Below the pieces are notes generated by a model that was given only the letters and a program-made list of their open reading frames with translations, was not told where the DNA came from and did not search any database. The translations under genes were made by a program, and so were the position numbers. From Shigella phage vB_SboM_Phaginator: a stretch of 64,000 bases of DNA. The DNA lies in sequence record OL615012; one strand, given 5' to 3'. Every line of letters starts with the position of its first letter. Within the stretch, counting starts at the first letter, position 1. Positions 53,101-53,999 of the stretch are shown here, piece by piece.

Positions 53101-53999
53101 TTTCAATTGATATGACTGCTGGTACTGTTCGTCTTGGCGAAAATACTTCTTTTAGTAAAGATGTTACTATTGATGGAAACATTAATTCACGAGTTAAAGT
53201 TGTCGGACAGTGGAATGTTAGCTTTTCTGATATTTCAGATGTGACTCGTGACCGTTCTGCATTTTTAGTGAATACAGGCGGCATTTCCAAGACAAGTCAA
53301 TCTTATTACCCACTATTTTCTGGATACAGTTTTTTAACTGACACGGGTTATCGCCAATCGTTTGAATTTGGATGGTTAGGTGTTTCTGGTACTTGGCGTC
53401 AAGGCATTATTCGCATGCGTGGTGACAAGCCATCGGGGCAACAGGCTCGTTGGACTTTTGATATGGACGGAACATTTTATGCTCCTAAATTGGCTTGCGG
53501 TTCTACCGGTGCCCTTGGTATTAACACATCCAACGGATGGGGTGGTAACTCAATTGCAATAGGTGATAGCGATACCGGTTTTAGACAAGTAGGTGATGGG
53601 CTTTTAGAAGCGTGGGCTAACAATGTTAAAGTTGTTAGATTCACCTCGGGTGAAGTTTATTCCGAGAAAAACGTCAACGCTCCTAACGTTTATATTCGTT
53701 CTGATATTCGTTTGAAATCTAATTTCAAGCCTATTGAAAACGCGCTCGAAAAGGTTGAACAACTTGATGGTTTAATCTATGACAAAGCTGAATATATAGG
53801 CGGTGAGCCTGTTCAAACTGAAGCGGGTATTATAGCTCAAACGTTACAAGACGTTTTACCAGAAGCTGTCCATGAAACAGAAGACAGTAAGGGTAATAAA
53901 ATACTCACTGTTTCTTCTCAAGCTCAGATTGCTCTTCTGGTTGAAGCTGTGAAAACACTTTCCGCTCGTGTAAAAGAACTTGAATCTAAACTTATGTAA
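50172..53999 (+). CDS. 37: Long tail fibre distal subunit gp37 (T2-type, with C-terminal chaperone-like domain)
   Basis: 1275 aa; N-terminus [43 protein letters not shown]… is T-even gp37-like; C-terminus carries …SDIRLK… and a coiled-coil end. Confidence 0.9.
   Translation: [1275 protein letters not shown]

Follow-up and report, generated by a model that had tools for sequence, protein, structure and literature searches.

A C-terminal peptidase S74 chaperone domain with predicted self-release in the long tail fibre protein gp37 of Shigella phage vB_SboM_Phaginator

Results

Here, we report that gp37, the long tail fibre distal subunit of Shigella phage vB_SboM_Phaginator (sequence record OL615012; the 64,000 nucleotides analysed are called the window below), ends in an intramolecular chaperone of the peptidase S74 family, aa 1177-1275, which very probably releases itself, with Arg1176|Ser1177 as the likely cut, and would leave behind a fibre tip expected to dock the adhesin gp38. 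The membership of the domain in this family, its conserved catalytic residues, its near-identity to the corresponding part of T2 gp37, and the partner gene for gp38 are all direct observations. That the C-terminal domain is a genuine S74 intramolecular chaperone is, in our judgement, close to certain.

Gene 37 and the tail fibre block

Gene 37 is an ORF at 50172-53999 on the plus strand and encodes a gp37 precursor of 1275 aa and 136.2 kDa with Pfam matches to Gp34_trimer, gp37_trimer, and Peptidase_S74. It is part of a T-even long tail fibre block, preceded by gene 34 (44448-48317), gene 35 (48326-49441), and gene 36 (49504-50163) and followed by gene 38 (54030-54821, plus strand), the holin gene t (54854-55510), and asiA on the minus strand; this order, i.e., 34-35-36-37-38-t-asiA, is the same in T4 and in the closest phage record, and the closest phage records label the product of gene 37 as long tail fibre distal subunit. 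The gene itself is a mosaic, in which aa 1-751 align with T4 gp37 (52.6% identity) and aa 724-1275 with the distal part of T2 gp37 (57.4%). The phage collection has no record that spans the entire gene at high identity: the best whole-gene match is vB_EcoM-UFV13 (89% coverage, 91.7% identity), and vB_Eco_T-01 shares 99.1% identity over the last 700 bases. Between 53703 and 53999, no other ORF of at least 60 aa overlaps on either strand (the longest has 52 aa), nor does any Rfam family.

The initial annotation of this DNA, made from the letters alone, had put gp37 at about 250 aa longer than T4 gp37, and the exact excess is 249 residues (T4 gp37 has 1026 aa). The chaperone accounts for 99 of these 249 extra residues; the rest belongs to a different, T2-type distal half.

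Family membership of the C-terminal domain

The domain occupies 53700-53996 on the plus strand (aa 1177-1275, 99 aa, 10.8 kDa) and runs up to the gp37 stop codon, i.e., to the extreme C-terminus of the fibre protein. PF13884 (Peptidase_S74, "chaperone of endosialidase") covers aa 1177-1234 (nt 53700-53873) over profile positions 1-58 of 58, and the profile begins exactly at Ser1177. With the whole gp37 as query, the match has an E-value of 1e-14 and scores 54.9 bits, where the curated cut-off is 22; with the C-terminal 149 aa alone, the E-value is 3.1e-16. A single-sequence search of the PDB found 6F45_A, the S16 gp37 tip with its chaperone (E 8.6e-10), where SDIRLK of gp37 is aligned to SDRRIK.

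A domain profile was built from an 18-sequence alignment, which comprises the last 140 aa of gp37 and 17 homologues. Ten of the homologues came from phage records, i.e., T2, vB_Eco_T-01, a Mosigvirus, Klebsiella KP15, Aeromonas phage 25, a T5-like phage, phiON-2011, Thermus MN1, Vibrio D490, and Roseobacter CRP-212, and the remaining seven are metagenomic proteins; the identity of the distant homologues to the gp37 tail goes down to 24-47%. Searched against the PDB, this profile matched four distinct sequences: 6F45_A from S16 gp37 (E 3.5e-27); 8JOV, a tail fibre (E 3.7e-13); 7DC3, the self-cleaving domain of human MYRF (E 1.9e-12); and 3GUD, the neck-appendage chaperone of GA-1 (E 1.2e-4). 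The S74-like chaperone domain proposed in the initial annotation is thus borne out by the PF13884 and 6F45_A profile matches. In 33 tail-fibre PHROG families, the domain matches the extreme C-terminus, i.e., roughly the final 100 profile positions, and tblastn matched it in 1639 phage records; a protein database search with the 119-aa gp37 tail returned 12 proteins. The domain is a mobile C-terminal module with a wide distribution.

One 176-aa metagenomic protein covers 39% of the gp37 tail and is 100% identical there, yet its Pfam assignment is PF01594 and not PF13884. An 885-bp contig encodes it, and the ORF is probably chimeric or was mis-called.

Motif and catalytic residues

The start of the domain carries the S-D-x-R-x-K motif as it had been quoted in the initial annotation, which let the last ~98 aa of gp37 begin there; the count is 98 aa from Asp1178 and 99 when Ser1177 is included. 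The predicted nucleophile, Ser1177 (codon TCT, 53700-53702, plus strand), aligns with the Ser of SDRRIKK in S16. It is followed by the motif residue Asp1178 (codon GAT, 53703-53705, plus strand) and, five residues past Ser, by the predicted general base Lys1182 (codon AAA, 53715-53717, plus strand). Ser1177, Asp1178, Arg1180, and Lys1182 are invariant in the 18-sequence alignment, and so are Gly, Ala-Gln, Pro, and Val further downstream. The motif occurs a single time, at 53700, in the six-frame translation of the 64-kb window (~128,000 codons), and we do not consider it a chance motif because it is located at the start of a full-length PF13884 match.

The +5 spacing between Ser1177 and Lys1182 is that of Ser1264 and Lys1269 in T5, where Lys1269 activates Ser and the Ser1264Ala substitution prevents cleavage (PMC4690869). 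In K1F and T5, an upstream "folding sensor" is formed by an Arg of the neighbouring chain (Arg1250 in T5), which forms the oxyanion hole. These folding-sensor residues were not identifiable in gp37 since the sequence of its fibre tip ahead of the domain is unrelated to that of T5 and K1F and is not alignable with either.

Predicted coiled coil and structural model

The S74 chaperone fold consists of a trimeric coiled-coil core, an alpha/beta body, and a beta-hairpin "tentacle". The coiled-coil-like end of gp37 that had been noted from the letters corresponds to a C-terminal amphipathic helix with heptad periodicity (53916-53993, plus strand; aa 1249-1274). Counted from Ile1253, Ile, Val, or Leu occupies seven of seven heptad a/d positions (I1253, L1256, V1260, L1263, V1267, L1270, and L1274). 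Over the last 23 aa, this heptad pattern speaks for the helix as the trimeric coiled-coil core that is expected of the chaperone; the T5 chaperone has such a trimeric coiled coil at its centre (PMC4690869).

An AlphaFold2 monomer model of the last 140 aa (12-sequence alignment) is poor, with a mean pLDDT of 51.8 and values below 50 in the first 48 residues and at positions 67-85; please note that a low pLDDT is expected here because one chain of an intertwined trimer was modelled from a shallow alignment. The helix at model positions 114-139 is its best-scored part (pLDDT 66-78). The order of elements in this poor model, i.e., helix, helix, hairpin, and long helix, is compatible with the chaperone fold. 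A Foldseek search of the low-confidence monomer against the PDB gave nothing significant (best E 0.18); its top matches, winged-helix regulators and ribosomal proteins, are unrelated and were discarded as meaningless.

Comparison with known fibres

Among the closest known counterparts is T2 gp37 (X04442, 1341 aa), the classical case of a processed distal tail-fibre subunit, whose 99-aa C-terminal domain is identical to that of gp37 here at 90 of 99 positions (91%), with an identical junction and likewise a Pfam S74 match at the C-terminus. T2 also shares the hairpin between genes 37 and 38 and an adhesin-type gp38 partner. Overall, the two proteins are 55-57% identical, gp37 here being 66 aa shorter, and the N-terminal 751 aa are about equally similar to T4 gp37 (52.6%) and T2 gp37 (54.8%). 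The tip of gp37 ends in NVYIR before the chaperone, which is identical to T2 and matches DVYIR of the fPS phages (PMC7917993).

T4 gp37 (NC_000866), in contrast, has no S74 match; it has Collar and fibre-repeat matches and a His-rich needle end, and T4 uses the separate chaperones gp38 and gp57A, its gp38 being an assembly factor unrelated to the gp38 here. No Collar or Phage_fiber Pfam matches were found in gp37 here, unlike in T4, and the similarity to T4 gp37 ends at aa 751. Judged by sequence features, gp37 would thus be classed as a T2-type long tail fibre protein and not a T4-type one.

In the S16 gp37-gp38 tip complex (6F45; Dunne et al. 2018), SD-R-K is aligned with the motif of gp37 here. 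The S16 chaperone is reported to have 113 residues (PMC7917993), compared with 99 here, and ahead of the cut S16 reads DLNVS, whereas NVYIR here is of the T2/fPS type. More distant members of the same S74 family include the chaperone of the T5 L-shaped fibre pb1 (4UW8) and that of the K1F endosialidase, the holotype of peptidase S74. The C-termini of T5-like fibres align with gp37 at 37% identity and share with it the invariant Ser and, at +5, Lys. The exposed tip of T5 and K1F itself binds or cleaves the receptor, whereas the tip here is expected to hold a separate adhesin.

Just before the chaperone, the segment at 53508-53680 (aa ~1113-1170) is ~40% identical to a P2-type phage tail fibre protein; P2-type phages use a separate Tfa assembly protein. 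The P2 similarity stops at the junction, where P2 reads ...SRYVR-DIRLGG and lacks the Ser; this may reflect a recombination boundary common to both or be due to chance. A tblastn match of a P2-type tail fibre that seemed to run into the chaperone was rejected: it is confined to the segment before the cut, and the remainder is a gap-filled extension.

Predicted self-cleavage and the position of the cut

By analogy with its relatives, gp37 very probably cleaves itself in this phage. PMC3157838, citing Drexler 1986, describes the C-terminus of T2 and T6 gp37 as proteolytically cleaved, after which gp38 caps the fibre. In S16, the last 113 residues are reported to be autocleaved after trimerisation at DLNVS^SDRRIKK (PMC7917993), exposing the gp38 docking surface; for the Tequatrovirus fPS phages, DVYIR^SDGRLKI is predicted (PMC7917993). 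If gp37 is cleaved, then the scissile bond is likely Arg1176|Ser1177 (nt 53699/53700), because the catalytic Ser leaves with the chaperone in S16, T5, and K1F. The predicted mature gp37 (50172-53699, plus strand; aa 1-1176, 125.3 kDa) would end in ...NAPNVYIR, as placed by the junction alignment with S16, the fPS phages, and T2.

A cut one codon further downstream had been proposed in the initial annotation, at 53702/53703, i.e., Ser1177|Asp1178, and it would leave the conserved Ser on the mature fibre with the domain otherwise as described. This is a minority possibility, and we regard it as rather unlikely. A precedent could be phi29, where Ser was modelled as the final mature residue, but the density there is weaker and was called less convincing (PMC4690869). 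In T5 and K1F, by contrast, Ser departs together with the chaperone (PMC4690869); in S16, the closest solved relative, the reported cut reads S^SDRRIKK (PMC7917993); and the GA-1 neck-appendage chain 3GUD_A starts with SDERHK. We therefore place the predicted cut at Arg1176|Ser1177.

It is much less probable that the domain stays on the mature fibre as a chaperone or trimerisation module whose self-cleavage has been lost, and no positive evidence speaks for this. All of Ser, Lys, and the other invariant positions are intact, the domain shares 91% identity with its T2 counterpart, cleavage of gp37 is reported for T2 and T6 (PMC3157838), and the downstream gene encodes a gp38 adhesin that needs an exposed tip (PMC7917993); for T5, it was described that the uncleaved form does not prevent adsorption (PMC4690869).

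Slightly more improbable still is removal of the C-terminus by a separate host or phage protease, for which SDxRxK would only mark the site. According to PMC3157838, where no protease is named, proteolytic processing was described in the 1986 work on T2, which would be in line with such an enzyme. However, recombinant S16, T5, and K1F proteins are described as self-cleaving, and a Ser-to-Ala exchange abolishes cleavage (PMC4690869; PMC7289586); gp37 moreover matches the whole family profile, beyond the site motif. A chance resemblance of the motif in an otherwise ordinary fibre segment is refuted by the full-length Pfam match (E 1e-14) and the PDB profile match (E 3.5e-27), to which the 1639 phage records and the single occurrence of the motif in the window may be added, and we give it practically no weight.

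gp38 and the candidate signals beside its gene

Gene 38 encodes a glycine-rich adhesin of the T2/S16 type with 263 aa. Its product matches Pfam GP38 (PF05268, E 3e-69) and Gp38_N (PF21721, E 7.3e-18) and aligns with S16 gp38 in 6F45_D (E 1.5e-48), including the N-terminal Trp residues; it also matches the GFP-gp38 fusion structure 9V85. Long glycine runs are present, GGGGGGGAG and GGGGRPFGAAGAAGGGAAAA, and S16 gp38 has other variable segments between its glycine motifs, so that the receptor specificity is not readable from those here. By analogy, gp38 is expected to dock on the gp37 tip that chaperone release would expose; docking of gp38 following cleavage has been described (PMC7917993; PMC3157838).

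Two candidate signals lie at the borders of gene 38. A GC-rich, terminator-like hairpin, AGAGGGC-TTCG-GCCCTCT with a T-run (54001-54028, plus strand; 7-bp stem), begins two bases past the stop codon of gene 37, lies right before the start of gene 38, and overlaps its ribosome-binding region; the same stem-loop appears in the T2 record X04442, which annotates it as a potential terminator that overlaps the ribosome-binding site of gene 38. A near-consensus sigma-70-like promoter match (TTGGCA, 18 nt, TATAAT; 11 of 12 positions, a consensus match only) is found at 54793-54822, in the 3' end of gene 38 and a short distance ahead of the holin gene t (54854).

Discussion

The following course of events is proposed. 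The trimeric coiled coil of the chaperone would put three gp37 chains in register and thereby nucleate folding of the distal fibre, starting at the C-terminal end. When the tip has folded correctly, Ser1177, with Lys1182 as its activator, would attack the preceding peptide bond, so that each chain would be cut at Arg1176/Ser1177; a 10.8-kDa fragment would come free, and the mature gp37 of 125 kDa would end in ...NVYIR. The cut would expose a blunt trimeric tip on which gp38 docks with its N-terminal domain, and the docked adhesin would carry the receptor specificity. For this phage, we infer the cleavage, the exact bond, and the docking of gp38 by analogy with S16, T5, K1F, and T2. A second role of the released 10.8-kDa trimer, i.e., transient binding that gates gp38 loading, or a Ser|Asp cut giving a tip unlike that of S16, is quite improbable; either is a small variation on the known mechanism, and no observation points there.

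The gp37 chaperone is an ortholog of the processed C-terminus of T2 gp37 and a regular member of the S74 family; such a domain has already been described in T2 and S16, and it brings no new biology. C-terminal cleavage of gp37 in T2 and T6 dates to the work of 1986 (PMC3157838), and the later S16 and fPS papers ascribe the cleavage of gp37 to the S74 chaperone family (PMC7917993, PMC7289586). What follows from it here is practical. The annotation of gene 37 should read precursor, with mature gp37 at aa 1-1176 and the chaperone at aa 1177-1275. If such fibres are expressed or engineered, the C-terminal domain must be kept for folding, and its absence from the product should be expected; this applies to swaps of the gp37 tip or the gp38 adhesin that aim at host range and to recombinant fibres for detection.
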